DNA of 32,000 bases, taken from the NCBI GenBank assembly GCA_025839675.1, contig CP104013.1, positions 5,790,001 to 5,822,000 on the forward strand, written 5' to 3'. The DNA comes from Candidatus Lokiarchaeum ossiferum (GTDB lineage Archaea; Asgardarchaeota; Lokiarchaeia; Sigyniarchaeales; Promethearchaeaceae). Below, one piece after another: positions 3-23,870 of this stretch. Each line of letters starts with the position of its first letter. Within the stretch, counting starts at the first letter, position 1. The notes below the pieces were generated by a model that worked only from the letters and a program-made list of their open reading frames with translations, did no database searches and was not told the origin of the DNA. A program made the translations under genes and the position numbers.

Positions 3-3000
3 TCTCAATCTCCCGAAGATAAGTATTATGTGGAACTGGATTCAGCTATGCTGTTTGGTGAATATGAACAGCAAATGGAGACCTTTACCTTCACCTTTAC
101 TGTAAATGGCTATAGCCAAGCCTGGACCTATCGGTTGTATGTGGATAATGACAATCCCGAGATCACTTTTGGATTCGATCCTTCCGTTTCCGTGAGTAGC
201 GATTCGATTGAGACTTCTTTGGATGAAATACCCGTAGTCTCGCTTAGTCAACCCATAAATTTAATTCAAGATCAAACCCAGATCTCATTGGATATTTCCC
301 ACAATAATACCGCGGATTTAGCTTATCTCGAATATTATGGGCTTTTTTACCATCGGGAAAGTGATGCGGATGGATGGTTGGATTATAACGCCATTTCGTA
401 TGACCGTGGGGTTGATGGCTTTAATTGGATCCAAGATATTTCAAATGGTTTGCTCTTTGCCATTGATAAAATGATTGCCAATGGTATAACTTGGAGCACC
501 TTACCTTCGTTATCTGGAAGTGATTATCACTACCTTCAATATGTGACCGAGTGGAATGTGAATGGCCTTTCAAACACATATTTCAATGAAGAAATGACCT
601 CCGCTCAAACAGACTTTGCCTCAAACTTGAGCCTGTTACTTTCCTATTTAACTACCGATCAACTGAGTAGTGCCTATGATCTAATGTTAAGGACTATCAA
701 ACCGCATTTAACGGAGCTCGCAACCAATGAATACGATGTACCGTGGGAAACTCCCGAAAAAGTCGTGTTTGGAACCTATTTTTCGGATGATTTAGCAACA
801 TATACTCCAACAATTAATCTGGAAGGTTTTCCCGATGGGTATTTTCAGCTCGGAACAAGCATTACTGATCATGTCGGATTACGAGATGAAAGTGTATCGC
901 CTCTGTATTTCTTGGAAAACAATCTCCCCACGTTCCAAATTGTTTCTCCTGCGGATAACGAACAACTGGTAATTTTACCCGATCAATGTAATTATGTGAA
1001 TTTTTCGATGTATGTGCCTGACCGTGATATTCGCTCGATTGCCTTAACTAATATGGTCATGTTTGATGATCTGGTGACGGAAGATTTAACTTTTGATATG
1101 GGGCAAGATTTGCCCAATCATCGAGTCGACTTCGGATTCAATCTCTCCGAAGCCATATCCAATACAATTGTGAATACCTATGTACTCAACCCACAATGTG
1201 CATGGACCATCACTACTGAAGATTTTGCAGGACGGATCTATACGCAAACCCGCACGTTTACCTGTGTGCAAATTCCAGATCACATTGGTCCTCAATTTTT
1301 GAATTATACGGTTCCAGATGCGTCCGCCCTCTGGACCGAAGGATGTGATATTGTTTTAAATATTACTGATTTTGGCAATCCTGTATTTGATGTAAATATG
1401 ACTTATGTTGGGGATGATGTGGCTTCTGGAATCCGATACTTGGAAGTGTGGCTTTCAGAAATCCCTCAAAATCTAGATCCTAGGCAAATTTACTTCCCGA
1501 TTATGGACTTTGAAACCACGGGAGATAGTTCCATGCTGGATAATTTTCTTGGTTTTATCATTACCTCCGAATCTGATGGTACATATATCTTCAATCCCGC
1601 GAAAATGAACAAGTTTTGGGCGAAATATGACGGGGATGGGCAATATACTTTTATTGTACGGGCTTTTGATCAGAATTTTAATGCAGAACTTATCACCGTT
1701 GATTTAAATATTGTGCAACCTCGCTTAAACCTCCCAGCTAATACTCCGGTGCCAACCATCGGAAGTGATGAATGGTTAAACCTTACTTTATCCAATCTTG
1801 GAGATCAAGTGGTGAGTGTTGAAATGCTGCTTTATACAGACATTACGGCCAGTTTCTTAGCTCCATGGTCATTAAGCGACTATGAGGAAGCAACCGAGAA
1901 TTTAATTGATCATCCGACGGATCCCGATGCCCTTCCAGCCTGGAATTCTTTGCGAATCCATACAACCATTCCCTATCTTGATCTGCCTGATTTGAACAAG
2001 AATCTGCCTGCTGCGAAAGGATACAAAATGGATTCCACATGCAATCCCTCGACGTGGAGCAGCAATGTTTATAGCTATACCCGAGTACTAGCATATGAAC
2101 CCCTAACAATGGGGGAGATTCTCACGTTTTCAGCATGGATCTATGTCTCTGAAGATTTTAATGGAGATTGGGCACGAATATCATGTGAAGGTGTTATTTC
2201 TGGGACGTCCTATTATAATTTAGCGAAAAAAGGGACGTGGCAGAAGGTCGAATTAACAGTTACGGCCAGTTCTACAGGAGAGGGTCATGGTTTCTTCTAT
2301 TTCTCAAAAAATGGAATTACTGATTTTTCCACTTTAACGGGGTATGTCATTTATCTGGCCCCCCAAGTGGAAAAGAAGGCATATGCGACACCTTTTGCTG
2401 ATGGCTCACGACTACCCATGCGATCCCAGATCTTATATAATTCTACCTCTCAGACAGAATATCAGTTCTCCTTCGCAGGAATTACCGAAGAAACCTATTA
2501 TGTGAATTATCAAATCATCCAAACCGATGGATCTGTTATTTCCCGTCTACATCAAGTTTCGTATCCCGATCACGTTGTGGAAGAATTACAAATTCCCAAT
2601 CATCTCCTAACCTCAGACAATACATGGTATGATCCTTATGGACTCGTGATTGATAATCACTTTCCACATGATGCCAACTGCAACTTTACGGAAGGGGATC
2701 TATGGTCAGAGATGGAAACAGTAATGATCACGTGGTTAGGGGAGACTCCTACCACGACTTCACCATGCGAAGTCTATCTACGATTTAATGGGATGGAATA
2801 TCCCCTAGTGAATAAAAGTTATACGGTGGACTGGATCACCCGTTCGGCGATTTTTACTCTAGATACGTATGAACTGCCCGAAGGGAGCCAAATTGTCGAA
2901 GCAACGGTTGTGTTTAGTAATGGGTATCAAACCAGCGTATCTCGGGTCATTATTGTTGACAATACTGCTCCCGTATTTATTCAAGATGGTATTTATATTA

Positions 3001-6000
3001 ATGGTACATCCCAATATGCCTTGAACGATTGGGTCCAGTACAAAACAATTATGTATTGCAATAATGTCGTCGAGCTGGAGATTCACGCCCAAGATAGTGA
3101 ATCGAATATCACAGCCATCGATCTTTGGGTAGAACACCAAGGTAATCTAGTTGGCTCGCTTCTTTCTTACCCCTTCAATTCTCCTTCTGTAATGGAAGCA
3201 CTACTCTATGATACGACAAGTTTAGGGGATGGGGAAGTGTATGATCTTTGCATAAAGATCAGCTCCGCAGGAGGGAGTATTACTTCCGATACAATCCAAT
3301 TATTTATCGATCGATCCGCCCCCGTGGGTGAATTTCTTACTCCTGCCACCACCACCACTTTTGGAGGTGACACAATTACCCTAGATGTCCTAGCGACCTC
3401 AAATAGTCCAATCCAACAAGTAGCCTTTTATTTCCAAACAGGGGTGGGGGGATTTTCTACTACTGACTTTTTAGGGTATGCCACCTTGCAATATGATTGG
3501 ACCACAGATCAATACCTCTATCGGTTGGACTTCGCGGATGTCGTTCAGTATCAGGGCCAAACCAATTACTTCTGGTTAGAAATCACCGATGAAGCGGGTA
3601 ATATGGCTCAAATCCCCACTTCGACACCGTGTACGATCTTACCGCAATATATCTCCTTAACGGAGGTTGAAGCGGTCTATTATATGGATCGGGATGAGAA
3701 TGCGGTGCTAACTGGAAGCCTTGAAAATTTTTATGAAGATTATGCCAATGCGATTATCAATGTTACGTTGAATATTCAAAATGGAGGCATGTTTGTGCCC
3801 ATCGGATCGGATGTGATTACGATTGATTCGACCACCGGAAACTCTGTCAATATAGAGTGGGGTGGGAATCTGCCCTTAGAATTTACCGACCTCGAAAATC
3901 TCCGTATTCCTATATCTTATGTGAGTCTCGATGGAAGTATCACATCTTGTGCCATCGATACCACTAATATTGCTGTCTGCGGAAAGTTCAACGCGACAGA
4001 TTCCCATCAAGTTGCTTTTATTACCTGTGGAACGGATCGCAGGATTCATCTTTTCTCCCATGATCCAACCACAGTGTTTGAGTGGAGTCGCTTTGATGAT
4101 ATCGATACGTATGCAGACCTCCCCGCAAAACACGTGGAAGTGGTGGATTTTGATGGAGATGGATATGATGAATTACTCTTACTCACGGCCGATCGGTTGA
4201 TTGTGGCTTCCTTTAATCGCACAACCCAAGATTGGGAATATCGAGAATTTGAATTTTCCCAATGGGCCGCAGATTTCTCGCAACCGGTGGAAGGCGTTTC
4301 CATGGGAACGAATAGTACTCACCTCTTTTTGGGATCTAGTTCTCCTCTCTTTACCGATCGAATCCTCGTAATGGAATCCCTTCCAACGGGCGATTTTTCG
4401 CTGGAGCAAGTGATCTATGCTCCGGAAGGAGAATCGATCACGGCATTTTCTAGCCTTCCCCTTGGGGATTCGGAGGATCTAACGATAGTAACTCTCCACG
4501 GTATCTATTCCCATAAGGAGGATCACTGGACCGAAATCTTCACCAGTGAATATACCTTAGTGCCAAAACTAGAGGTGGGCAATTTAGATCTAGACTCTTC
4601 CAATGAACTCCTCTTTGGAGTCTATGGGTATCAAGGCATTGATGTCATTCAAGGCAACTGGAATCTGAATACACAGTCCTGGGAGTTCATCGCAGCTCAA
4701 GCGTATTCGGACATAGCTCAAATTTATGACCTCGCCATTGGTCATGTGAATATGGATAACCGAGGACGGGCCATTATCGCCACCGATGCAGGGGTGGACA
4801 TGATCGATGTGTTAGACGATCCAACAGTGACAGCGGTAGAAGATATTTCTACCAGTCAAGATATGGAAGGCTATTATACGCAAAATGGTCTCTATGAATA
4901 TACTGATCTCGGTGCTCTGGATGACACAACCATTACAGAAATACGTGGAGAATTATCCTATACCTCGATGGGAGGTACTCTGGAAAATATATATTCCCCC
5001 GATCGGGTGAAGCTGGATGATGGATTGCATTTAGAAAGTGGTTCGATTGCAGATATAAGGGCCATTGATAATGAAGTGCTCGAAATCAGGTCCGATCACC
5101 ATGATGAAACTTCCCAACTTGGGATCGAGTTCTATTTCGATGAATTGGATTTAAGTCAAGAAACCACCTATACGCTTCAATGGCAATTTGAGGATGGTGG
5201 TTCACTGGGCTGGTTGAAAATTAAAGAAATTAAAATTTATGACCTTTATGATGTGGAACGTGTTTCTATCACCGGCACATCAGGTTTTTGGGGTGATGAA
5301 GTAGCAGAGACGGGTCTCTATGATATTGCGAGTTCAATCGGCAAAATCGAAGTCCTCATTGACAATGGTAACTTTGCCATGCCGTACATTTTTGAAATTG
5401 ATCTCATCTCACTCACCCTTCCCGACTTGAAAATGAGTGGTCCCCAAGGATACACCTCGGAGCAATTATCAACTGACACATGGGAACTTGGATCAGAACT
5501 AACTCATTGGAAACTTGATGGAAATGCTGTGGATGCTTTGGGATCTTATTCTGGAACCGTTTTAGGGGCATCTCCAACGGTCGATAGATTTAATTGTCCC
5601 AATAGTGCCCTAAATTTTGATGGTGTGAATGATTATATTACTGTTCAAAATGTGGCGGGTACATGTATAAGCGATCCTTCGATTACGGGAGAAATAAGTT
5701 TATCGATGTGGGCTTATATTGAGGGAGGTCTCTATATGGTTTCAAGCGGGGGTCAAACGAGTAGTCGTGGGATTGCCATTTCTTACCAAAATGGCAACGA
5801 ATTCATCCTTCTTCATGATGGAAATCAACAATGGATAGTATATCCTGATTGGCCCTTGAATCAATGGATTCATATCGGATTCACATGGAATGGATTTACT
5901 TTGGATTACTATCAAAATGGAGTGTTAACGTTATCGGACACTACTCCAACGAGCGCTTCTTTTTCGGACCTTCACACTGAATTGACCTTAGGAGTACCCA

Positions 6001-15000: not shown

Positions 15001-18000
15001 TCAAGCTCTATGATGAAGTCCGAGTAGACGAATTTGGGACAATGCATAATGAAACCACGTTACTCCAACAACGCAAGCTCACCACTTTAGTTTATCCCGC
15101 CGTCTGGAATCAATCAAGTACTCGAACGGTTGTGGGTCCTCCGAGTGTCACCGAAGGAGGACGATTTACCATTGGAACTCCTGAAGCCCAAGTCTTGAAT
15201 TTAGCGATGGATGTCACCGATCCCGAAATGGCCCATACTGCCATTCTTGAGTATAATTTAGCGGCCAGTGATCGGGATCTTGTGATCACCCGCTGGTCAG
15301 AACGATTCTATGATCGAGGATATTCGGCGAGTGATCCCGCTTCGATCGATACAGTGCAAAAAGTATGGCCTGTGGAAAGCATATCCTATTATGATCAATC
15401 CACCATCTTAACCCATGATTGGATCACGAAAAAAGTAAGTGAGAATTATAATCCCGATATCCTTCGGGATGTCTCCAATTCGGAATTGCAATCGATTAAG
15501 ATTGACGCCAATGATGGACTGAATCCTGTGTGGAATCAAGAAGTCGAGATTCATTTTGATAGCCATTATGTCATAGCCAATCAAGTCGATACGGTGGCTT
15601 TAACCTATCGGTTCGGTCTTAAAAATTACTTTGCTTTAGGGGCCCTTGGATTTCCCGCGCGCGTGGATCTCCAAATCCAAAAAGCGGATGCATCATGGAG
15701 TACGATCGCTTCCATCGAGGATTTAAATGTCCCCTTTGAACAGGATATTGCTTGGGTGGACGGAGTGTTTACCATTTCTGAAACCGAACTGGCCACATTT
15801 ACGGAAATTGGAGGATCAATGCTTTTGGATCTCAACGATCTACGGTTTGTGTTTGACGGGTGTGGGGTACGGGGAGCAGAATTATTTATTGATCAGTTGG
15901 TCCTTACCTTGGATAATGATAAAACGCGCCTCTTTTGGGACGATGAACATATTCATGCGTACAGTGATCTGGCGGCCTTGACCCATAGTTCAGATCCGGT
16001 CGTGATCACTCAAAGTGATAATCCACAAGCCGGGCAATCGGCCAATGTGTATACGATAGTGGATAATCGCACCCAAATTCCCGAAGTAGTAGGCTATGGT
16101 GATACGGAACTATTGTTGATGAATGTGGGTAACTGGAAAAACACCTCTTGGTGGGGAGACTCTCATTATGCAGGAGCTGATGCATGGAATTCGTGGGAAT
16201 ATCTTGTGAATGAAATGGATATTTATTCGGTGGAGGGTTCCCTTGCCGAAACCGACCAACTCCACTTGGATATTACGCCCTTTTACACGGATCCGGTTAC
16301 CCGCACCCCCGAGTTTGCGTGGATGGAACTTCCTCTCTATGTATTTACCACCCAAGGGATTGACGAAATGACATTAACGTATTCATTCTCCAATGCGGCT
16401 GACGAAAGCATAACCTACAATATGACGGAATTAGTGGGTGAGAGTGGATTGTTCATGGAAACTCTCCGTCTTCAACTGCAAGGACGTTGTTTAACGGAAG
16501 TCACATGGGATTTCACTTTCCATTCTTGGGTGAGCGCAGCCGACATCTCCACAGTCGGGTTAGGGGGGATTGCCTTTTATACCGAAGCGTCTTTGGGCAA
16601 GTTAGTGTTAACAACGGATACTTTGACGCATACGCACGATTTACTCCCCACAGTCTTTACAGGGCCCACCTCCCCCTATGGGGAATATGTGAATTTGTCC
16701 TCCCTGGGTGTCTTTACCTCCTTGGATCGCATCCAGATCCAAAGTGCCCAAGGCGTCAGCGATGTCTTACACAATGGATATTATGGAAGTCCTCTCTATC
16801 TCAGTTCCTTTACGGTGGTTAGTTATAATACCACATCACTGGCCGATGTCGCCTATCATTATGCCTATAATTTTGATCCGGTGCAAAGGAATTTTGAATA
16901 TCGCATGGTCGATTGGATGGAAGCGACTCCCACTCCTGAGTCATGGGAAGGAAGCAGTATGACCACCGAAGAAATTCCGTGGTTACGTCATCAAAGCTGG
17001 GATCTCGATGGGGATGCTTCTTATGATCTCTATGTGGAAGAATTTGACGGCGAAGGGCTCGGGGAGTTCTCCAATAACAAGTTAGATAATTTTCGGGTGG
17101 ATTATACGGGCGATGGATACTATGATCTTCAAGTGACCATGGATACGACCTTGACCACTTCTCAAGTAACGACACCCACCCTTTATAATATGGAGACAAA
17201 TTTGATTGGTGAAGCCACCGGGCATTATTATGTCATGCAAAATGCCAAGGAATTCATCGAAATTTCTGAGGATACCGATGGCGATGGACGCTTTGATCTG
17301 AAATCCGAATTTTCCCTCACCGCTTCTACCATGGCCTTACCCGAATATCGAGAATATGTGATCCATAACCATCAACTCACTTCCTTTAGTGATGCCACGT
17401 GGCACAAACCGATTGCGGGGGTGGCCTATAGTGTCGATAGTGATGGGGATGGGGTGTTTGAAGAAAGTATATCCCGTACCGATCGCTGGGCGAACTCCGA
17501 ATCTATTTTGGACGAAGCCTATGAACATTGGATCTATGAATCCTATACCTATACCTATGAGGATTTTGTGGAACGGGATAACATGCTCAAGGAAAATCTT
17601 ACCTTTACCCTCTGTGGGCCCGATTATTTCAATCTCACCGAAGACGGGTTATTGCAATTTGATTCTGATGGCGAAGTGTTGTATGATCGTCCCAGTCTCA
17701 CGGCCGAAGTGATTCTGGAATATGATGTGCCTGTTCCTATTGATCCCCGGTATAATCGTACGGTGGATCGTTCTTCGTGGGAGATCGATCGGTACCCCGA
17801 ATTACTCTGCGATCCCCATGGGGTGCTTGCATGGTGGGATGGTGATCATGATGGCACTGCAGAAACCGCTTTTGTGTTTACGGAACAATCGTGGGCCGAG
17901 GATCAAATGGCAATTGCCATTTATTATAGTCGGGATGGATCGGAGCAGGTGCATATTAATAGTTTTGAGTATCAAGCCTCGGGTGATTCGCTCCTACCTT

Positions 18001-21000
18001 TGTACTGGCTGAGTGCGGCGTACGATTATGAAATTCTGACCAACATTGCGTGGGAAGATTCCAAGGATGCGTATTGGACACAAATGAAAGGCTTTATCGA
18101 TGGGCAAGGTAACAGCATGACGGCCTCTTACTATTTAGATCTGGTGCATTCAATGTCCTTGATGGGCACCTCCGCCCTTATGGGGGGTGGGTTCGGATTT
18201 ATTATGGCAGGGTATGCAGTCTACCAATATTGGACTCGTCCGTTGTTGGTCGACTTTCTTGCCGAACATCAATTATGGGGAATGCAAGAACAACCCCATG
18301 AATTTGGGCAAGAAGCGGATCGCTATGATTTCTGGGATGGGTTGGATGCGATGATCGAGGATTTCACCAATTTTGGGAATTTCCAAGATCCTCAATACTA
18401 TGTGCAATCCTTCCCAATAATTACATCCAATCCTTGGTGGGATGATACAGTGTGGCGAGAAGCGGCTGAACCGACCTTTGATACCAGTAATACAGTGGTG
18501 TCCTTCAAAGTGCCCGATATGCAAATCAGTGGGGATACGCACGAAGGCATCATTGCTTGGTGGCTCCATTGGTATGAAAACGACTGGGTGGAAAATGATC
18601 CTGTGATTCCCTATGCGAATGCGCCCCAATGGTTATGTGATTTTATCACCACCTACCTTCAATATGTGCAAACTTCTTCCGATATGGATCGACCTCCCTC
18701 GAGTTATGTGAAAACACTCTATCCTGATATCACTATTCCCCAAGCCGATTTCAATGGCGAATTGGGGCAGGGGCTCTATGCCAATGTGTGGCGAGATCTT
18801 GGGGAAGTTGAATATCAACTCCTAGAAGGCAATCAACGGGGAGTTATTGCCACCACCTTGACCACCCATCATCCCGTCTATACCGATGTGATTTTCTCCG
18901 TGGATGCTTCGGGGCGACCTCTCTTTACACCCGCTGCGACTGTGTCCCGCAATTTGAGTGATCCGATTGCTCGGACCCTCGATTATATGGAACTCGCCTA
19001 CTATGCCCAATATGCGGGTGCCTATGAAGACGCCCGTGCAAAGGATCCCACGATCATTGCGTCACAACTTGGATTACAGGTGGTGCAAGTCGTGGCCGGC
19101 GTTTTGGCTTCGAATTTGGCTGTGATGAGTTTAGATCCTGTTGGATTCTATACGAATTATGTGGTCCGGGAAGGGTTGCCTGGCATCTTGCTGGATTTAA
19201 GTCGGGAAGTGTTCGAAGAATTGGTCTTAGAAGAACTAGTCAGTTCTGCGGCCCGATCCGTGGGGATTTCTTTGGGATTGGCGAACTTGTTAGGGGAATC
19301 CTTCGGGAGTTTTGATGTCATTTCCAACATCTACAGTACAGTGGGATCTGTCGATTACAGTGATCTCTATACGGCCTTACAAACGACTACCCCGCATTCG
19401 ACCACCCAACACGCTTCTTTAAGCGAACATGTGGCAGTCTCGAGTTTTCAACACCTCTCACAGGTGAAACAAGTGGCCCAATTGAAGAGTCTCTTACAAG
19501 CTCGATCCAGTATCCATGCGCTGATCCAATTACGAACGAATGCGCGAATGATGGGAGCTTTACAGACCTTTATTAGTACCCACATGGGTTCCAATATTCA
19601 GTTGAAGCCATACCTTAGGAATCTCGAAACTATGCCAATTCTGAAGTTTACCAATCACCATTTGACCGAGGAAGCGTTCCGTTTGGAGGTTGAGGAGACT
19701 ATTTGGGAATATTCGATCGCTGGGAAGTCGGTGCAAGAATTTCTCTCGGATCCCGCTTTATTGGCCAAATGGGGGTTGACGGAATGTGGAAATGAGATGT
19801 TCTTCCAGACTGTTTTGAAAGATTTTGGATCTGTGCAATATAAAGCAGATGGTCTAGTGTATGAAGAAATCGATGGAGTATGGAGATCTCGAATGAAATA
19901 TCCTGATGAAACCTTGGGAAGTTTTCTCTCTCGAGTGGATGGTGTGGTGTTGATTGATCCTCCCCATCAGAGTAATTTAGATAAATTTATAGAAAAGGAA
20001 TCAAGTAAGGAGATTGGAGATTCTGCGGAGTTAGATCCCGAAATTGTTTTCAAGGCGTTAGTAGAATCTAAAGATCAAGAACTAACGAAATCCACTTTGG
20101 AAACAGCTACTTTCTTGATTAAGAAAAAGCAATCTTTGAAATTAGATACTGCTTTTAAAACACCTCAACAGCTAGCAAATTTGCGGACTTATAAACCAAA
20201 ATCAGATAAATCACTCTATCCTATGAAAGTCTTTAAAGAAACTCATGTTCCTACAGAAGGAGATTTTCTGCATCGGGGTGATTCTTCCTTAAAAGAAATG
20301 ATTCCAATTCAGATAGAATCGATTAATAGATTTAGGAAATACCTAAATTACATGAAAACTTCGATGTTCCGTACATTAGTTAAGCAGAAGCTAAATAACT
20401 ACGAGGCTCATTTGAATTCGCTATACTCAAAACTAGAAGTAATCGATTCAACTAATCCAACAATTGTCGATGACCATTTCCGAATATCCGAAGATCTTCT
20501 GAAGATCTTTAACACATATCTTGGATCCAACACCTATATGGTCCTTCCTGCATATGCACGTATGAAGATTTCTGGATCATTGAAAGATTTGTATAAATGT
20601 TATTGGCAAATCAATATTTTGAAGAAAGGAACTATGTTTTATGAAAATTGTCGAAAGCAAGGAAAAGGGTTTTCTTTGCTCATTGGACCAGTTTCGGGAT
20701 ATAATGAATATAACATTTGGGTAAACCCTACTTCAAACCCTTTAGAACGATATCTCTTCAAAATTACCCCAAGAGGGGGCCATCATGAAGCAGCAACGGT
20801 TCTTTCATTCATAAAAACGAAATCTTTGGGTATGCCGGAAATAATCTCTCGTTCTAGTTTTTCTCCTCAAGATTCAGTAATTGATTGTCAAACGGATGCA
20901 TTTTCAATGATCTTAGGAGACACTGAATTAAATCGTTTATTGAATCATTTGAATATTGAACTCATCAAATCTGATTCTTCAGGCTCTCTTAAACCTGATT

Positions 21001-21893
21001 TTTATGTACGTACTCAAGCGGGTGAAAATTTTATTGGAGATGCTTTAGATGCTAGTAATACCGAAGATTTGCTCAAATACTCGGTCTCCTTAGAAGGAAG
21101 TTTGTTAGGCGGAATGGCTGAATTTGGGATCTCAACTTCCACTGCGATGCAGATGGCCTTTTATCGAGATTTGAACATCATTGGAACCATCGTTCCTAAC
21201 ATTTTGCGTGAAAATTTGGAGATTTTAAATTATATCCATAAGTATGAGACTGGTAATCCGTCGCAATCCTATGAGCAAACTATTAAGGATTTGTTTAAAA
21301 ATGCCGAGTCTTGGATTCCCACTATCCTGCCCGAGTATGATTCGGAAGGGCGGTTTGAGGGATTGGATATAATGTCATCTGAGATGAAGCGTTTGAAAGC
21401 AATCGAAATACAGCAAGAATGGGGGGTGACTCTTGAAGGAATCGAAGGAGTTATCAAACCCTTCGAATATGAGTCACCAGATCTTTATTATGGGAATTTG
21501 AGGACAACAATTTCTGTTGTGAAAGATATGCGGCTTTTCTGGTTCATGGTACGCAATCCGAGTGCATCATACCAAAATATCATAGATTATTATGTCACAA
21601 TCGCAACTGACTTATATGCTGATGCTGATATCGATTCTTTCCATGGAGATACTTTTAAAGATTATTTACAAACATTATCCGATGGTCGAATAAATAATTT
21701 TCCAGCACAATTGGCTCAATTTCCTCAAATGGGAATTGTTCATTTATGTCTGGACCATTGGCTTAGTCAAGGCGGATTTAATCTCAAATTGAAAAATGAA
21801 AATGTTGATAAGATCAACGATATAATCAGGAAATTGAATGAAATTTTGATTGCAAATGGATACAATCTGCTTCCTTTCAAAGCTAAAAAGTAA
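3..21893 (+). CDS. Giant (>7,296 aa; 5' end cut by window edge) acidic multidomain cell-surface/adhesin-like protein with C-terminal membrane segment(s) and a long tail
   Basis: There is no stop codon for 21.86 kb. The frame is also open from nt 3: SQSPEDKYY precedes the GTG at nt 30 used by the ORF track, so the true start lies upstream of the window. All alternative-frame ORFs inside it are <=128 aa. The protein is D/E/T/S/Y-rich and K/R-poor with many N-x-S/T sequons. Extracellular domain types are listed as sub-features. Confidence 0.9.
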   Translation, partial: SQSPEDKYYVELDSAMLFGEYEQQMETFTFTFTVNGYSQAWTYRLYVDNDNPEITFGFDPSVSVSSDSIETSLDEIPVVSLSQPINLIQDQTQISLDISHNNTADLAYLEYYGLFYHRESDADGWLDYNAISYDRGVDGFNWIQDISNGLLFAIDKMIANGITWSTLPSLSGSDYHYLQYVTEWNVNGLSNTYFNEEMTSAQTDFASNLSLLLSYLTTDQLSSAYDLMLRTIKPHLTELATNEYDVPWETPEKVVFGTYFSDDLATYTPTINLEGFPDGYFQLGTSITDHVGLRDESVSPLYFLENNLPTFQIVSPADNEQLVILPDQCNYVNFSMYVPDRDIRSIALTNMVMFDDLVTEDLTFDMGQDLPNHRVDFGFNLSEAISNTIVNTYVLNPQCAWTITTEDFAGRIYTQTRTFTCVQIPDHIGPQFLNYTVPDASALWTEGCDIVLNITDFGNPVFDVNMTYVGDDVASGIRYLEVWLSEIPQNLDPRQIYFPIMDFETTGDSSMLDNFLGFIITSESDGTYIFNPAKMNKFWAKYDGDGQYTFIVRAFDQNFNAELITVDLNIVQPRLNLPANTPVPTIGSDEWLNLTLSNLGDQVVSVEMLLYTDITASFLAPWSLSDYEEATENLIDHPTDPDALPAWNSLRIHTTIPYLDLPDLNKNLPAAKGYKMDSTCNPSTWSSNVYSYTRVLAYEPLTMGEILTFSAWIYVSEDFNGDWARISCEGVISGTSYYNLAKKGTWQKVELTVTASSTGEGHGFFYFSKNGITDFSTLTGYVIYLAPQVEKKAYATPFADGSRLPMRSQILYNSTSQTEYQFSFAGITEETYYVNYQIIQTDGSVISRLHQVSYPDHVVEELQIPNHLLTSDNTWYDPYGLVIDNHFPHDANCNFTEGDLWSEMETVMITWLGETPTTTSPCEVYLRFNGMEYPLVNKSYTVDWITRSAIFTLDTYELPEGSQIVEATVVFSNGYQTSVSRVIIVDNTAPVFIQDGIYINGTSQYALNDWVQYKTIMYCNNVVELEIHAQDSESNITAIDLWVEHQGNLVGSLLSYPFNSPSVMEALLYDTTSLGDGEVYDLCIKISSAGGSITSDTIQLFIDRSAPVGEFLTPATTTTFGGDTITLDVLATSNSPIQQVAFYFQTGVGGFSTTDFLGYATLQYDWTTDQYLYRLDFADVVQYQGQTNYFWLEITDEAGNMAQIPTSTPCTILPQYISLTEVEAVYYMDRDENAVLTGSLENFYEDYANAIINVTLNIQNGGMFVPIGSDVITIDSTTGNSVNIEWGGNLPLEFTDLENLRIPISYVSLDGSITSCAIDTTNIAVCGKFNATDSHQVAFITCGTDRRIHLFSHDPTTVFEWSRFDDIDTYADLPAKHVEVVDFDGDGYDELLLLTADRLIVASFNRTTQDWEYREFEFSQWAADFSQPVEGVSMGTNSTHLFLGSSSPLFTDRILVMESLPTGDFSLEQVIYAPEGESITAFSSLPLGDSEDLTIVTLHGIYSHKEDHWTEIFTSEYTLVPKLEVGNLDLDSSNELLFGVYGYQGIDVIQGNWNLNTQSWEFIAAQAYSDIAQIYDLAIGHVNMDNRGRAIIATDAGVDMIDVLDDPTVTAVEDISTSQDMEGYYTQNGLYEYTDLGALDDTTITEIRGELSYTSMGGTLENIYSPDRVKLDDGLHLESGSIADIRAIDNEVLEIRSDHHDETSQLGIEFYFDELDLSQETTYTLQWQFEDGGSLGWLKIKEIKIYDLYDVERVSITGTSGFWGDEVAETGLYDIASSIGKIEVLIDNGNFAMPYIFEIDLISLTLPDLKMSGPQGYTSEQLSTDTWELGSELTHWKLDGNAVDALGSYSGTVLGASPTVDRFNCPNSALNFDGVNDYITVQNVAGTCISDPSITGEISLSMWAYIEGGLYMVSSGGQTSSRGIAISYQNGNEFILLHDGNQQWIVYPDWPLNQWIHIGFTWNGFTLDYYQNGVLTLSDTTPTSASFSDLHTELTLGVPNSVKTAYHFDGKLDDLRFYDTVLSRSEMQQLSQGPFVIEGVNSENPNPLISLATLTTSGDVTQIARILQPNTAGYSPAGDLQALTVNQVTSDTLGYDANGYITQSFFADTPVTTTSLLSRLGDYPNNALVQTGNSMYAIAGSTFDFYSALPATLHISRHGTPGYGYGSIMNYYIYYYSDNNLLRSVNVDCYSEGYGSGVAIFAFNVDLKEGYVNGEGCNKIGVGVKFLYTDYGTLSVKCIPNLENEADPSNYPIEWNNCYNKVPFEADITINRGELGDIEDVLNYRLTIPIEIDMYGRTFAGTITDLNYNPAVLSAQNILIHTSIDGGNTWNAYSGANIVQQSTLAYNIELSLTPSSLSIFFSPEGSVLMRVSFLLEFTHPSQFVYDGYALIPTLRIDASQIEAELLSRISSSLECDQTGFEILEIPIDRSPILENEFDIFHPPSNFDATYSTRVLLDLTCPDLIYTAYSAPLEGDIQVRSLESDSNTVRLDHFEGSTSATHTSGILYTTSGEEIVGSKSIILPSAGSYAKYDYNVEFTYEGTAECYFRPSTVPMDNTLYAIMTSDSSGYPGLMVYMYNGKIQAGHYTDVGNVGKFCGWTYSDPVLNENEIYHIAYSWKDGDGAYLYINGNLVGSNPDDGDPANFFLDCWGTSTHVGIGQCGYRSSVGAALGTYDEYRFSNLARTDFPTTIYTEKTYDALEALYNDDQVEKLPIRISVEDISSSAPTEASEITLALQYDEGDVIMNNNAYIDLDSETHPFPNGVIPEDIALTITTKSSNFASYLSSERTYRISYSFWSETEGVWHLLCALPASTLDFSLKAGSVPTTETTITYGETGHDQYYEQTFGVALPIAQCENAKYLQLEIDGEVDHFLWDTGNWYEYNAFDTADHGLTYNQWISDNNGKTHLQIHHPTNGWTNLESWNWTTYLDGRFALTYALIDGWGTFDQSLNDEYYQFAFRFIIDQGAYPQANHHMEVNIRKISGMIVHTRDPNDVESREKAYEMYDGRHLFSITLGDTTFDPSALDAVSISVDMGVIINITTVPGGVKLPILDEKLVWRQLAAEFFLESQITTAQGEHLLKNLFGSPTITAQVIDDDLIYTVSQTLTLYSRNQIAEFLHFEEGVGYSLRGRLVSHFSLLNNRLGSIRVSVQATDDFISAAKVVYERISEQVSPNQVHDLTLGDLDDDGDQDLLFDDGSAIIVQPNEATFALKLSAFNNDSLDPYLDQYFLGSMDLGAPHPNFYGQTQELPEFGTSMTLHVVDYSYDLTSIALYCDDVLVETQSVTQGSNYFSFTVDTLSPLIGEGNHVMKVIATDSQSQTGEANLMVIIDRSAPSTTLQMLGDWQDLEVSLRTNLTLDVVESNTLISTEMLFTSVTDVPICAFTFAQEDLKSISLLEDVILPSGFDHGAFKIRFWSVDQAGNSEIPTEYAFTISSTYDLTFYTDETYLEEETTLSRHEGEVLFGQVLDRFGEPLPEGFPLDLKFEGLNYIQTSIQGNFGHFSGQIQSSNLLTDDLRTDFALANNGGLEEELVTSDTVEFTLAGENRYFAVDGLRRFYYGSANPLTLIYDQVDLSDYSSLYSFEGIHVEVIIPSAYHDDMGTTYETIEIEFRELAHFENDTDIVTTYTVPFETLLAAVKTSNPTPWQDMMVSRIGIDIGFYNLVARNSLFNLSAIDQIRIIGHDNGIHPDFSLEDPSNSDQLLGCAGIYLLDHLNQATMFYETNPSGVESVTYALTAQCNMGVVGNTITTYAYPLTIQPKPFMLTVTSTVNTTMTFGDLYTLEGIEWDTGFNPTTTEIIDDFCLLQAIYEGDSYPTPIGTPMDLGIASEMTFLINALPGEYTDLHLNYSGNALYPSTLSGELLSDLTVTKKPTHIELANSVLSMERNSSSSLFGLVLTTDRYPLLPDTDVSVTQTLLREFAEGTRGDYYWGNYTFENVLLGLLNESGEYDWMEMAFLQEGEVFVFDVDLAEDGNLEGMTPGLYSMAVKFEGNALYDATVQPFLLQVNPSALDIEIREGFAQNWTAMANGYASYLQYSDEKVFSMKVSDAFDADPCAGYPLWYQVGFTPNSPNFPLMCVSDNYADTWGDYMEFQTSETPDILKFWQYIQAKDDRPIAYPYYDEAMDQIMFMAPFAYGMVTTDAEGLAEVVLDPQMTTEIAELYKAIFKVTLGSLDEINLYFRVFYDASFSPDQMKMPDLVSLGYTYPIEYFGKEALVYEGDDILPTASISNGFWTGTNYQDPYHCGSWGEGILTMLAEDTMIVAGYQEFNEPNFNLAAAVVEADLIAEGTYLPEVHGESNFIESTGLPTDNWMELGLEIWNQANSSQVLAYPWAEMVDDLGISTFTCNENTLGSAIDRLLPGFYTANYAYERGSSIYYNAPHAGSTSLLLKGVNSARLDSPTHHQTLSELIGPETVSTTSLTTAEGETILGEFDTNYPTLTGELSLDALNEIPDNYNYTDLITVDFLWNGWRVGGEYSYNLSEYTEAIPFEVPFKFQDGYPVNFSVEVAFDYNPEANLNWSAEMTAAGYEIWSEYYLSMAYNATLENCWANYAPISDYAIILTELSVKQSTLYDSGNEWDLMAELLTKYPQVSYDGYNLNQNPGAGWKYLNGSIQDDIPQVSLKIGEDNVEEYVSATIDQSAITISLDKDQISGWTPDHSEEYNVTLSFPELFSVERYQWNMSYDVDDPQFEKHSRFTQLTGMVLGENVNKSLRTAIYTNSTYDGTEATQDATYIGLQVGETMSLVVPDVYMPWRGELQWQALCPQLPWLDYTSLEWELVLTVHQSADPTNIHTLSWILNTSDFSKVDGGFWQDLSTFIPSAFYSCDVNLELNITLHSSGDVTAIYPLYLIHGYLVGQEDIVTISTVYPSALRARMFGSSFLYLYTLFGKDMGITATSNDDQGNTLENINDMYLEVLPYTGDAYGVQSITDILSVKDERRFLEYPSVSEANMDYWFTTASGTPNYATYQEFVAEDSLGQTMFAMRYNESQLDAIEDPRIYSGFVKLYDEVRVDEFGTMHNETTLLQQRKLTTLVYPAVWNQSSTRTVVGPPSVTEGGRFTIGTPEAQVLNLAMDVTDPEMAHTAILEYNLAASDRDLVITRWSERFYDRGYSASDPASIDTVQKVWPVESISYYDQSTILTHDWITKKVSENYNPDILRDVSNSELQSIKIDANDGLNPVWNQEVEIHFDSHYVIANQVDTVALTYRFGLKNYFALGALGFPARVDLQIQKADASWSTIASIEDLNVPFEQDIAWVDGVFTISETELATFTEIGGSMLLDLNDLRFVFDGCGVRGAELFIDQLVLTLDNDKTRLFWDDEHIHAYSDLAALTHSSDPVVITQSDNPQAGQSANVYTIVDNRTQIPEVVGYGDTELLLMNVGNWKNTSWWGDSHYAGADAWNSWEYLVNEMDIYSVEGSLAETDQLHLDITPFYTDPVTRTPEFAWMELPLYVFTTQGIDEMTLTYSFSNAADESITYNMTELVGESGLFMETLRLQLQGRCLTEVTWDFTFHSWVSAADISTVGLGGIAFYTEASLGKLVLTTDTLTHTHDLLPTVFTGPTSPYGEYVNLSSLGVFTSLDRIQIQSAQGVSDVLHNGYYGSPLYLSSFTVVSYNTTSLADVAYHYAYNFDPVQRNFEYRMVDWMEATPTPESWEGSSMTTEEIPWLRHQSWDLDGDASYDLYVEEFDGEGLGEFSNNKLDNFRVDYTGDGYYDLQVTMDTTLTTSQVTTPTLYNMETNLIGEATGHYYVMQNAKEFIEISEDTDGDGRFDLKSEFSLTASTMALPEYREYVIHNHQLTSFSDATWHKPIAGVAYSVDSDGDGVFEESISRTDRWANSESILDEAYEHWIYESYTYTYEDFVERDNMLKENLTFTLCGPDYFNLTEDGLLQFDSDGEVLYDRPSLTAEVILEYDVPVPIDPRYNRTVDRSSWEIDRYPELLCDPHGVLAWWDGDHDGTAETAFVFTEQSWAEDQMAIAIYYSRDGSEQVHINSFEYQASGDSLLPLYWLSAAYDYEILTNIAWEDSKDAYWTQMKGFIDGQGNSMTASYYLDLVHSMSLMGTSALMGGGFGFIMAGYAVYQYWTRPLLVDFLAEHQLWGMQEQPHEFGQEADRYDFWDGLDAMIEDFTNFGNFQDPQYYVQSFPIITSNPWWDDTVWREAAEPTFDTSNTVVSFKVPDMQISGDTHEGIIAWWLHWYENDWVENDPVIPYANAPQWLCDFITTYLQYVQTSSDMDRPPSSYVKTLYPDITIPQADFNGELGQGLYANVWRDLGEVEYQLLEGNQRGVIATTLTTHHPVYTDVIFSVDASGRPLFTPAATVSRNLSDPIARTLDYMELAYYAQYAGAYEDARAKDPTIIASQLGLQVVQVVAGVLASNLAVMSLDPVGFYTNYVVREGLPGILLDLSREVFEELVLEELVSSAARSVGISLGLANLLGESFGSFDVISNIYSTVGSVDYSDLYTALQTTTPHSTTQHASLSEHVAVSSFQHLSQVKQVAQLKSLLQARSSIHALIQLRTNARMMGALQTFISTHMGSNIQLKPYLRNLETMPILKFTNHHLTEEAFRLEVEETIWEYSIAGKSVQEFLSDPALLAKWGLTECGNEMFFQTVLKDFGSVQYKADGLVYEEIDGVWRSRMKYPDETLGSFLSRVDGVVLIDPPHQSNLDKFIEKESSKEIGDSAELDPEIVFKALVESKDQELTKSTLETATFLIKKKQSLKLDTAFKTPQQLANLRTYKPKSDKSLYPMKVFKETHVPTEGDFLHRGDSSLKEMIPIQIESINRFRKYLNYMKTSMFRTLVKQKLNNYEAHLNSLYSKLEVIDSTNPTIVDDHFRISEDLLKIFNTYLGSNTYMVLPAYARMKISGSLKDLYKCYWQINILKKGTMFYENCRKQGKGFSLLIGPVSGYNEYNIWVNPTSNPLERYLFKITPRGGHHEAATVLSFIKTKSLGMPEIISRSSFSPQDSVIDCQTDAFSMILGDTELNRLLNHLNIELIKSDSSGSLKPDFYVRTQAGENFIGDALDASNTEDLLKYSVSLEGSLLGGMAEFGISTSTAMQMAFYRDLNIIGTIVPNILRENLEILNYIHKYETGNPSQSYEQTIKDLFKNAESWIPTILPEYDSEGRFEGLDIMSSEMKRLKAIEIQQEWGVTLEGIEGVIKPFEYESPDLYYGNLRTTISVVKDMRLFWFMVRNPSASYQNIIDYYVTIATDLYADADIDSFHGDTFKDYLQTLSDGRINNFPAQLAQFPQMGIVHLCLDHWLSQGGFNLKLKNENVDKINDIIRKLNEILIANGYNLLPFKAKK
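2016..2411 (+). other. Domain in giant ORF: jelly-roll, galactose-binding-like/CBM_4_9-like module
   Basis: Segment KGYKMDSTCNPSTWSS...LTFSAWIYVSEDFNGDWARISCEG...GTWQKVELTVTASSTGEGHGFFYF...GYVIYLAPQVEKKAYATPFADGSR. The beta-strand pattern and the terminal 'Q-V-E-x-x-x-Y-A-T-P-F' resemble CBM/tail-fibre-type jelly rolls. Assignment is by eye only. Confidence 0.35.
2760..3640 (+). other. Domains in giant ORF: three tandem Ig-like modules
   Basis: Roughly 90-120-aa beta-rich units are delimited by VDNTAPV (2958-2972) and IDRSAPV (3309-3323). The third unit carries ITDEAGN (DEAGN at 3588-3602). D-x-[ST]-A-P boundaries and D-x-A-G-N are typical of prokaryotic Ig-like surface modules. Confidence 0.5.
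3940..4820 (+). other. Domain in giant ORF: FG-GAP/VCBS-type (integrin-alpha-like) beta-propeller
   Basis: Blade-like repeats of roughly 60 aa are present. They include HVEVVDFDGDGYDELLLL (DFDGDGYDE at 4146-4172), VGNLDLDSSNELLFG (4574-4618) and IGHVNMDNRGRAIIATD (4738-4790). This is the D-x-D/N-x-D-G-x-x-[DE]-hydrophobic signature of FG-GAP repeats. Confidence 0.55.
5502..6096 (+). other. Domain in giant ORF: LamG / Laminin_G_3 (concanavalin A-like lectin) domain 1
   Basis: THWKLDGNAVDALGSYSGTVLGASPT...NSALNFDGVNDYITV...ISLSMWAY...NQWIHIGFTWNGFTLDYYQNGVL...LTLGV...HFDGKLDDLRFYDTVLSRSEMQQL. The motifs occur in the canonical Laminin_G_3 order: W-x-[FL]-D-G entry, F-D-G-x-x-D-Y-[IV], W-x-H-[IV]-x-x-[TV], Y-x-[ND]-G, and G-x-[IL]-D-[DE]-[LV]-R-[IF]-Y-x-x-x-L-S-x-x-E. 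Confidence 0.8.
7464..8060 (+). other. Domain in giant ORF: LamG-like domain 2 (more divergent)
   Basis: VRLDHFEGSTSATHTSG...GTAECYFRPS...NEIYHIAYSWKDGDGAYLYINGNLVGS...HVGIG...ALGTYDEYRFSNLARTDF follows the same strand and motif order as domain 1, ending in the D-E-Y-R-F-S box. Confidence 0.6.
9531..10300 (+). other. Domains in giant ORF: isolated FG-GAP-type motif followed by two Ig-like modules
   Basis: LTLGDLDDDGDQDLLFDDGSAIIV lies at 9531-9602. It is followed by LHVVDYSYDLTSIALYCDDVLV...HVMKVIATDSQSQTGEANLMVIIDRSAPS (DRSAP at 9984-9998) and ...FKIRFWSVDQAGNSE (DQAGN at 10248-10262). Confidence 0.45.
11529..12038 (+). other. Domains in giant ORF: Ig-like repeat ends (Big_3_5-like 'Y-x-G-N-x-L-Y' strands)
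   Basis: LNYSGNALYPSTLSGELLSDLTVTKKPTHIEL lies at 11529-11624 and MAVKFEGNALYDATVQPFLLQVNPSALDIEI at 11946-12038. Both match the [YF]-x-G-[DN]-x-x-[YF]-x-x-[ST]...V-x-x-x-x-[ST/A]-x-[IL] terminal pattern of 'Ig-like domain repeat' proteins. Confidence 0.4.
17001..17879 (+). other. Domain in giant ORF: membrane-proximal cluster of five DxDGDG-type (FG-GAP / calcium-binding) repeats
   Basis: The five repeats are WDLDGDASYDLYV (from 17001), VDYTGDGYYDLQV (~17098), EDTDGDGRFDLKS (~17271), VDSDGDGVFEES (~17433) and WWDGDHDGTAETAFVF (17832-17879). They are spaced roughly 30-130 aa apart. Confidence 0.6.
18150..18233 (+). other. Predicted transmembrane segment 1 of giant ORF
   Basis: SMSLMGTSALMGGGFGFIMAGYAVYQYW contains a ~22-aa uncharged Gly/Ala/Met/Phe-rich core followed by W-T-R. 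It is the first clearly hydrophobic stretch after ~6,040 visible residues. Confidence 0.6.
19050..19133 (+). other. Possible second hydrophobic/membrane-associated segment of giant ORF
   Basis: TIIASQLGLQVVQVVAGVLASNLAVMSL, preceded by ARAKD. It is only moderately hydrophobic because it contains Q, N and S, so it may be a TM helix, a re-entrant segment or a buried helix. Confidence 0.35.
19950..21890 (+). other. Compositionally distinct C-terminal module of giant ORF (AT-rich, Lys-rich, no recognisable domain)
   Basis: My hand GC counts of single 60-nt lines are: 19021-19080 52%, 19741-19800 48%, 19861-19920 38%, 19981-20040 37%, 20101-20160 25%, 20581-20640 23%, 21361-21420 35%. The protein switches from D/T/G/P-rich to K/I/N/L-rich sequence (e.g. 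LIKKKQSLKLDTAFKTPQQLANLRTYKPKSDKSLYPMKVFKE). Confidence 0.6.
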
Positions 21894-21926
21894 TCTAAAT
21901 GATTTAGAAATCTAAGGCACCAAACA

Positions 21927-21948
21927 TTTTTTATCTCGAATTTTTTTT
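21927..21948 (+). terminator. Oligo-T tracts after the giant ORF (archaeal-type intrinsic termination signal)
   Basis: A T6 tract (21927-21932) and a T8 tract (21941-21948) lie 34-55 nt after the TAA at 21891-21893. Confidence 0.35.
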
Positions 21949-21979
21949 ATAATATTAAGAATTCCACCAGATTTTGGAG
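21944..21979 (+). promoter_or_regulatory. Putative TATA-like box plus Shine-Dalgarno-like GGAG for the LRR gene
   Basis: TTTATAATATT (~21946-21956) lies about 35-40 nt upstream of the ATG at 21989. GGAG at 21976-21979 leaves a 9-nt spacer before the ATG. Confidence 0.3.
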
Positions 21980-21988
21980 CAATAAATT

Positions 21989-23818: not shown

Positions 23819-23838
23819 TTTCAGTAGATAAATATCTT

Positions 23839-23850
23839 GATAAAAATAAT
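23839..23850 (+). promoter_or_regulatory. Putative TATA-like box for the SIR2-TPR gene (leaderless or short-leader transcript)
   Basis: GATAAAAATAAT is centred about 26 nt upstream of the ATG at 23871. There is no oligo-T tract between 23818 and 23871, so read-through from the LRR gene is equally possible. Confidence 0.25.
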
Positions 23851-23870
23851 CTGAAGATGAATATGATATT

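Follow-up and report, generated by a model that had tools for sequence, protein, structure and literature searches.

What is encoded by a reading frame of 21.9 kb that contains no stop codon and is still open where the analysed DNA begins? The frame lies in a 32,000-nucleotide stretch (hereafter the window; positions 5,790,001-5,822,000 of the single 6,035,313-bp contig) of the closed genome of 'Candidatus Lokiarchaeum ossiferum', which has a GC content of 33.6% and some 5,100 genes. It is the 3' part of a gene of 9,753 codons, which we call gene A. The analysis presented here points to a giant surface protein whose C-terminal tail differs abruptly between close relatives and appears to be coupled to the adjoining gene for a leucine-rich-repeat (LRR) protein. 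Drawing on analogy, we regard as about evenly balanced the view that gene A and its relatives form an archaeal counterpart of CdiA/Rhs-type contact-dependent polymorphic effector/recognition systems.

Upstream of the window the frame stays open for a further 7,371 nt, back to genome position 5,782,632. Gene A accordingly occupies genome positions 5782632-5811893 (29,262 nt, with its stop codon at window position 21893), and residue k corresponds to window nucleotide 3k-7371. It is the longest open reading frame (ORF) of the whole genome, followed by ORFs of 9,602, 7,597 and 4,920 codons; the size of more than 7,296 residues given in a first-pass annotation of the window, which placed the gene among the largest of prokaryotes, was correct and understated. 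The earliest in-frame candidate starts are a TTG at codon 15 and an ATG at codon 52, and no other ORF of at least 150 aa is listed inside window positions 3-21893. The AT-rich background invoked in that annotation holds for the genome but not for the ORF itself (40-47% GC), and since random stops would make up about 5% of codons at a GC content of about 44%, a chance origin of the frame is excluded. The claim of a single uninterrupted frame also stands: window positions 4001-24000 are spanned, at 99% identity or more and with no insertion or deletion over these 20 kb, by Logan contigs of four RNA-seq libraries from a single 2025 study. The published assembly is circular and was made from Nanopore reads, with Illumina reads used for polishing by Pilon (PMC9834061). 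One contig of run X4 (depth 11) differs by a lone T>C at window position 17569, where the remaining three runs agree with the window. Contigs of runs X1 and X2 break at positions 6621-6650 and 7163-7192, where they overlap by 30 nt that also occur in further high-depth contigs, so that the breaks probably represent assembly-graph branches on a shared k-mer; no joint or indel is reported at either place. Contigs of runs X3 and X4 leave gaps in the intergenic region after the stop codon of gene A, which were not used as evidence for a transcript end.

Gene A belongs to a family whose near-full-length members have 7,600-10,100 codons. Two paralogues are found in the same genome, gene B (9,602 codons, 752834-781642) and gene C (7,597 codons, 5268740-5291533), which are 25-31% identical to A in collinear blocks along nearly the whole length. 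Also collinear with A are a 10,103-codon ORF of Ca. Harpocratesius repetitus FW102 (G) and a contig-truncated ORF of at least 3,998 aa in a metagenome-assembled genome of Promethearchaeum (H).

The point at which family members part company is best seen by comparing A with P0003, a stand-alone 1,558-aa gene on a 31-kb metagenome contig that carries a 5'-truncated version of the conserved C-terminal module. Identity with A residues 8138-9111 is 62%, with 38 matches in the final 40 aligned residues, which end ...VDGV..IDPP; beyond "IDPP" the two proteins are unrelated. The corresponding junction motif, [DA][GS]-h-x-h-(I/V)-D-P, closes the pre-tail domain in at least 8 members. A break in composition coincides with it. 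GC content at third codon positions (GC3) is 0.272 +/- 0.041 in genomic ORFs of at least 400 codons (99th percentile 0.386), and gene A stands at 0.41-0.52 in most bins, at 0.33-0.38 across a central insert with LamG domains and at about 0.35 in the tail, the value falling from about 0.5 to 0.25-0.35 at residues 9060-9110 and standing at about 0.28 past the junction. P0003 falls from 0.47-0.56 to 0.34-0.39 at the same junction. The divergent C-termini typical of polymorphic toxin systems are thus seen here in the split of A and P0003 after IDPP, in the motif shared by 8 members and in the GC3 break.

Variable tails range from 350 to 1,100 aa and fall into several types, {B, G, P0003, P0006, P0044}, {P0009, P0024, P0031}, {P0012, P0013, P0058} and {P0030, P0032}, of which the first ends in a domain of about 170 aa. 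The tail of A found no relative in Pfam, PDB sequences, the ESM Atlas, 400 Asgard genomes or a word-indexed set of 5.8 billion proteins. Neither this tail, nor that of C, nor a profile of B-type tail ends gave a match below E = 0.2 in PDB sequences; an ESM Atlas feature search with the post-helix region and the B-type tail end returned no usable match, and Pfam recognised nothing at curated cut-offs in 20 further tails. The extreme C-terminus of paralogue C (residues about 7515-7565) has a sub-threshold similarity to Toxin-deaminase (BURPS668_1122 family; 25.5 bits, cut-off 29.6), with a PCRSC (PCxxC) motif and no clear H-x-E upstream.

The gene next to the variable tail co-varies with it. An LRR gene lies directly downstream and on the same strand after A (609 aa), B (two genes, 333 and 310 aa), C (471 aa), H (677 aa) and P0003 (336 aa), and these partners are devoid of signal or transmembrane (TM) segments; sub-threshold LRR matches lie downstream of G and P0009. 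LRR loci number only about 25 in the L. ossiferum genome. P0003 combines an A-type body with a B-type tail, and its LRR protein aligns end to end with the LRR proteins of B, not with that of A. At the B locus the order is tail, LRR333, a 206-aa orphan ORF and LRR310: residues 38-206 of the orphan are 69% identical to the last 170 aa of the tail of B itself, and the two LRR proteins are 51% identical to each other. An adjoining gene, as expected of a cognate partner, is seen after A, B, C, H and P0003, and in P0003 the B-type LRR accompanies the B-type tail.

A further signature of the C-terminal region is its lack of N-glycosylation sequons (N-x-S/T). In most of about 25 members the last sequon is a conserved site, N-[YLFIA]-[ST]-[DN]-P, located about 30 residues before the equivalent of a moderately hydrophobic helix at residues 8808-8826 of A. 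The 525-1,417 residues after this site are sequon-free save for two sequons, of which one falls within the final three residues of P0013; these 2 stand against about 170 expected over about 24-25 members. L. ossiferum ORFs without TM segments show no such depletion (observed/expected 0.97; only 1 of the 137 with an expectation of at least 5 is sequon-free), ORFs with a TM or signal segment are enriched (1.27), and the LRR partners contain 28 sequons for 24 expected. Lysine content in A residues 8830-9753 is 6.5%, near the genome mean of 7.6%. The simplest reading of these sequence patterns is that the region past helix 8808-8826 is exposed to the N-glycosylation machinery at the outer surface of the membrane and has been selected to remain glycan-free. 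Sequon loss together with genome-like lysine content would then describe a module that crosses to the outside and yet works inside a cell.

The remainder of the protein has the features of an exported stalk. The topology of A and its relatives was derived from hydropathy, composition and two AlphaFold models (mean pLDDT about 74). TM-like segments were located by hydropathy at residues 229-247, 507-551 and 648-666 of A, followed by a hairpin (1098-1116 and about 1130-1150) with a basic loop directly after its first helix, which is kept in B (469-516) and G (559-608). On hydropathy alone, segments 648-666 and 1098-1150 qualify as the export or anchor signal known from polymorphic toxin systems. 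The first 640 codons (genome 5782632-5784551) encode a basic region (isoelectric point, pI, 9.4-10.5) with three TM-like segments that has no homologue in 13 related genomes and is also lacking in B and C, which begin at the equivalent of A residue 630 and at the second hairpin helix (A residue ~1125), respectively; its GC3 of 0.45-0.48 shares the unusual value of the body. A small ectodomain lies between this region and the hairpin. The stalk itself, about 7,300 aa from residue ~1156 to 8500, is acidic (pI about 4.1) and contains 1.7% lysine, below the first percentile of the genome (2.1%), and sequons are enriched in most of its 500-aa windows. These segments, and this acidic, lysine-poor, sequon-rich composition, agree with the earlier assignment to the cell surface.

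Every family member has in the middle of the stalk a segment of about 700-1,400 aa that cannot be aligned with the others. Since both ends of the stalk appear to be membrane-associated, this central segment would be a membrane-distal, ligand-binding tip. In A, residues 4001-5500 contain 2 sequons for about 14.6 expected. The sequon-poor zone extends over residues ~4001-6000 (window 4632-10631), with 0, 0, 2 and 2 sequons per 500 aa and 4-6 expected in each, and B, C and G show a dip at the corresponding relative position even though the sequence there cannot be aligned, the flanking stalk being enriched. In the giant G of H. repetitus, one strongly hydrophobic segment lies mid-stalk, at residues 4251-4269 of the 10,103-aa ORF.

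On the reading that we hold to be about evenly balanced, these elements would work together as follows. The membrane-anchored stalk would keep the variable binding tip away from the cell, and the region after the last helix would be exported and kept free of glycans. Touching another cell would lead to delivery of the tail, an exchangeable module with an effector or recognition role. Within the producing cell, the LRR protein would be matched to the tail as a binding or immunity partner, and the C-terminal end and adjoining LRR gene would be exchanged as one cassette. A more specific version, which we hold tentatively and place somewhat short of an even chance, is that of a home-grown contact-dependent effector-delivery or kin-recognition system of the Promethearchaeaceae, built on proteins of ~10,000 aa that are free of sequence repeats, in which a recombining C-terminal cargo devoid of glycans would pass to a cell in contact and a cytoplasmic LRR protein would serve as cognate immunity factor or receptor. 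Such a system may parallel CdiA, Rhs and teneurin, with no homology to their stalk, trafficking or toxin domains detectable in the searches run. Several points weigh against contact-dependent delivery. The helix at 8808-8826 could be a true stop-transfer anchor, its hydropathy (KD19 1.15-2.07 across the family) being ambiguous, which would leave the tail cytoplasmic and undeliverable. Tails and LRR partners are far larger than typical toxin/immunity pairs, no tail has a recognised toxin or enzyme domain and that of A is without any homologue, and a search after gene A revealed no orphan cassette. Sequon counts provide an indirect argument, hydropathy and models of ~74 pLDDT are the basis of the domain topology, and the RNA-library contigs support an intact frame without strictly proving its transcription.

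The possibility of a stop-transfer anchor leads to the rival explanation that survives best, which we consider unlikely although deserving of attention: an adhesion or sensing receptor in which helix 8808-8826 anchors a cytoplasmic tail, the LRR protein is an adaptor to signalling or to the actin cytoskeleton, the stalk binds substrate or partner cells, and tail and LRR protein co-vary only through binding each other. The helix, with a KD19 of 1.83 in A and up to 2.07 in relatives, the genome-like lysine content of residues 8830-9753 and the LRR partners without signal peptides would all suit a receptor, as would an organism that lacks an S-layer, displays 'complex surface proteins' by cryo-electron tomography (PMC9834061), and adheres to and crawls on surfaces using actin (PMC13716822). 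A cytoplasmic tail, however, gives no reason for the almost complete loss of sequons, from which cytoplasmic ORFs are not depleted. Cassette swapping at a sharp junction and an orphan duplicate of tail end and LRR gene are hallmarks of conflict systems rather than of housekeeping receptors, and the helix of G, P0011 and P0012 has a more polar character than a standard anchor would allow.

A passive structural or protective coat replacing the S-layer, with variation due to drift or virus-driven selection and an unrelated LRR neighbour, appears improbable. A huge, acidic, sequon-rich chain of beta-sandwich domains in an organism without an ordered S-layer (PMC9834061) is what such a coat might look like, and halomucin-type giant archaeal proteins are thought to be protective (PMC11573180). 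It would not account for LRR adjacency at 6-8 independent loci when LRR loci are so few genome-wide, for the LRR type tracking the tail type, for the orphan cassette at the B locus, for the conserved junction motif with its GC3 break, or for the sequon-free tail. Finally, a mis-assembly, a decaying pseudogene or an in-silico fusion, e.g. of a 640-codon N-terminus from another gene, could be suspected from the lack of homologues of these codons in related genomes, the later starts of B and C, the unfixed start codon of A and the absence of A, B and G from two large protein databases searched, but is very improbable, and largely refuted for the part in the window, given 9,753 codons without a stop, collinear paralogues and orthologues over the whole length, a closed, polished long-read assembly (PMC9834061), independent short-read contigs without an indel over 20 kb and an N-terminal region that shares the GC3 of the body.

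The counterpart of polymorphic toxin systems proposed here can be compared with several known systems. Like CdiA, Rhs/YD and MafB systems, the family combines a huge exported stalk protein with a conserved pre-tail domain that closes in a sharply defined junction motif, and, as in polymorphic toxin systems generally, C-termini differ between close relatives and a putative cognate gene lies directly downstream. What resembles an orphan tail and partner cassette is seen at the B locus, though not after A. Imm-LRR is a listed immunity class of such systems, and archaea are described as generally without them (Zhang et al. 2012, PMC3482391). Unlike them, the present family is known from sequence alone, occurs in an Asgard host, has a stalk of unique beta-sandwich domains instead of RHS/YD or FHA repeats, and lacks any Pfam domain known for trafficking, pre-toxin or toxin roles; its tails and LRR partners exceed the usual size several-fold, a hydrophobic hairpin and a helix precede the tail, and the tail is sequon-free. 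VARTIG of Thermococcales (PMC8416519) is likewise a large archaeal Ig-domain protein with a C-terminus made hypervariable by recombination and with variable downstream genes, an organisation said there to resemble polymorphic toxin systems. Compared by description, it differs in lineage and in that its variable part is an Ig domain, in contrast to the non-Ig tail of 350-1,100 aa found here, and its abstract describes neither an LRR partner nor a protein of ~10,000 aa.

With giant repetitive adhesins and halomucin, gene A shares the features of a huge acidic surface protein with beta-sandwich modules and LamG-type lectin-like domains; among archaeal proteins >5,000 aa, no domain is more common than Laminin_G_3 (PMC11573180). 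It differs from them in having no near-identical tandem repeats and a Pfam coverage of only about 4%. The aloposon genes Otus and Ephialtes of Heimdallarchaeum (Wu et al. 2022, PMC8813620) are giant genes in Asgard archaea as well. Gene A is not part of a tandem giant pair and is of surface type with a linked LRR gene. No tRNA was found within the 50 kb examined (the window and the stretch upstream of it, L001) and no MinD/ParA gene set among the scanned upstream ORFs, and on these features gene A was not assigned to the aloposon. Nor was a mobile element retained as an explanation, given the lack of a tRNA in these 50 kb; no search aimed at integrases was made.

Very few Asgard archaea have been cultured, 'Ca. 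L. ossiferum' being among them; the Lokiarchaeia of the Promethearchaeaceae are the closest cultivated relatives of eukaryotes, and adhesion, crawling and partner contact, all displayed by L. ossiferum, are invoked in models of eukaryogenesis. Genes A, B and C, whose products are without internal sequence repeats, are concrete candidates for the surface structures of this organism. If the cassette reading is true, Asgard archaea own a polymorphic cell-to-cell effector or recognition system with LRR partners. This would bring an archaeal example into a class of systems believed to be almost missing from archaea, and provide a testable molecular handle on the discrimination of partners, kin and competitors. 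The sequon-free tail is a simple signature that could flag exported unglycosylated cargo in other archaea. The gene itself sits in a published genome, giant Asgard genes have been counted before, and most archaeal proteins >10,000 aa belong to Asgards (West-Roberts et al. 2023). A literature search retrieved no description of the family, its collinear repeat-free architecture, the IDP junction, the coupling of tail and LRR protein, the orphan cassette or the sequon-free tail.

Table 1. Gene A and features of its product within the window, with the adjoining LRR gene.
Feature	Residues of A	Window position	Strand	Basis or remark
Giant gene A, 3' part (7,296 codons and stop)		3..21893	+	ORF listing; open at 5' edge
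Big_7 Ig-like domain	3564-3627	3321..3512	+	Pfam, 30 bits, cut-off 24.1
FG-GAP-like stretch with DFDGDG motif	3801-3849	4032..4178	+	Sub-threshold, 15 bits, cut-off 22.1
Central variable segment	about 4123-5222	4998..8297	+	Unaligned with paralogues; lower GC3; holds both LamG domains
Laminin_G_3 (PF13385) domain 1	4333-4483	5628..6080	+	63.6 bits, E = 3e-17
Laminin_G_3 domain 2	5002-5141	7635..8054	+	28.9 bits as tile, cut-off 27.6; 26.2 bits in half-protein scan
Most conserved stalk block (1,161 aa)	6400-7560	11829..15311	+	AlphaFold2: predicted string of divergent beta-sandwich domains
Membrane-proximal beta domain	8109-8459	16956..18008	+	Invariant D-x-D-G-D-G type (Ca-binding-type) motifs; confident in model
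Gly/Ala-rich hydrophobic helical hairpin	8495-8545	18114..18266	+	Flanked by conserved W..(I/M)D and YQY.(I/L)RP
Acidic, Trp-rich alpha/beta domain	8560-8770	18309..18941	+	Composition and model
Last N-glycosylation sequon, N-L-S	8774	18951..18959	+	Family pattern N-[YLFIA]-[ST]-[DN]-P
Moderately hydrophobic, Gln-containing helix ('TM2')	8808-8826	19053..19109	+	Boundary between sequon-bearing and sequon-free regions
Acidic helix motif FEELVLEE...GLANLLGES	about 8859-8890	19206..19301	+	Conserved
Pre-tail alpha/beta domain	8980-9111	19569..19964	+	Ends in junction motif ...VDGVVLIDPP
Variable orphan tail (642 aa)	9112-9753	19965..21890	+	No homologue in the sets searched; GC3 0.25-0.35; zero sequons
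Gene for 609-aa LRR protein		21989..23818	+	95 nt after gene A stop; no signal or TM segment

The stalk was noted at first sight as non-repetitive, in contrast to classical giant adhesins with dozens of near-identical tandem repeats. This is borne out for its sequence. Tandem Repeats Finder detected no tandem repeat in the ORF of gene A, and when the protein was cut into 300-aa tiles and compared with itself by BLASTP, 65 diagonal matches were obtained with a best off-diagonal E-value of 0.009, i.e. none at E < 1e-3. It does not extend to structure. An AlphaFold2 model of residues 6400-7560, built on an alignment of 17 sequences (mean pLDDT 74.7), is almost all beta; its PDB matches include MG chains of alpha2-macroglobulin and complement C3/C5 (E down to 1e-11), and its matches in AlphaFold database (AFDB) clusters include Ig-like, FN3, cadherin-like and DUF11 repeat proteins (E down to 1.7e-17). 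TM-scores of these matches are low, as expected where single domains match and their mutual arrangement differs. The stalk, so far as this single folded block shows, is thus unique in sequence and, as modelled, repetitive in structure.

Among the domains named from the bare sequence, the Ig-like domain and the two LamG domains pass Pfam cut-offs. They are the only ones in the protein to do so, amounting to about 350 of 9,753 residues, and almost nothing is recognised by Pfam in paralogues B and C. Motifs of the DxDGDG type are also present, five of the form D-x-[DN]-x-[DN]-G being found at residues 3839, 5638, 8214, 8269 and 8403. The FG-GAP propeller was not confirmed: besides the sub-threshold FG-GAP stretch, the best FG-GAP_3 score is 14.2 bits (cut-off 26.9), and the conserved DxDGDG region is modelled as a meander beta-sheet rather than a recognised propeller. 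This verdict on FG-GAP/VCBS comes from Pfam, the sub-threshold stretch itself not having been folded, so that a divergent propeller is possible there.

The conserved C-terminal module that precedes the junction was modelled as residues 8080-9120 from 36 sequences (mean pLDDT 74, pTM 0.65). Three long helices follow the membrane-proximal beta domain, the last two of which form the Gly/Ala-rich hairpin, a hydrophobic stretch of 40-50 residues across the family. Helix 8808-8826 is Gln-rich in the family, and the charges on its flanks are mixed between members with respect to the positive-inside rule. A disordered linker is predicted at residues 8895-8978, between the acidic helix motif and the pre-tail domain. 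Foldseek searches of PDB and AFDB clusters with this model gave nothing at E <= 1e-3; teneurin, Rhs/YD, CdiA-EC869-like and Ca-binding/VCBS entries headed the weak rows, and none of these was counted as evidence. With VIA-align, which scarcely probed the other domains of the model, the sole result was that model residues 28-241, in the beta domain, resemble an OspA-like meander sheet (Z 9.7, close to background). In the H. repetitus genome the membrane-proximal module occurs a second time, in a copy interrupted by stops (G011:1337888-1339108) that is possibly a decayed orphan.

The family is rare and restricted to the Promethearchaeaceae, with three copies in L. ossiferum. A profile of A residues 8000-9000 run against 400 Asgard genomes matched in 6 of 13 other genomes of the same GTDB family, with one weak partial match in a sister family and none in the rest, the largest sister family scoring 0 of 135. 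When every prokaryotic species was represented by a single genome, only four loci emerged, all in Promethearchaeota, and an exhaustive HMMER search of 1.84 billion representative proteins gave 59 matches. None of these 59 is as long as A, B or G (9,600-10,100 aa), and a 7,585-aa protein resembling C by BLAST is present. A word-indexed protein search with residues 2800-6700 of the window protein returned nothing, the query itself included. Absence from these protein sets says little, since neither the longest members (A, B, G) nor the query itself appear in them, and protein-level surveys may under-count the family for this reason. All three L. ossiferum genes are GC3 outliers, A being mostly at 0.41-0.52, B at about 0.34 and C at 0.14-0.21 (mostly below the first percentile). 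Such divergent codon composition in three old paralogues suggests either separate (horizontal) acquisitions from relatives or gene-specific pressure.

The neighbours of gene A include NYN, TSP3-repeat, NACHT, LRR and SIR2-TPR genes, some of them of defence type: a SIR2-like domain fused to many TPR repeats is encoded two genes downstream of gene A (window 23871-26354, + strand), and upstream lie genes for a NACHT NTPase (L001:6091-9162, + strand) and an NYN-domain protein (L001:728-1885, + strand). At the 3' end of the window, the opposite strand encodes a beta-lactamase-family protein (29051-30454) and a NosD/right-handed beta-helix protein with a Big_13-like region (30923-31999). Upstream of paralogue B (genome 744906-750612) are three tandem paralogous genes of 618-642 aa with 44-55% identity, the first of which encodes an SBP_bac_5 extracellular solute-binding protein.

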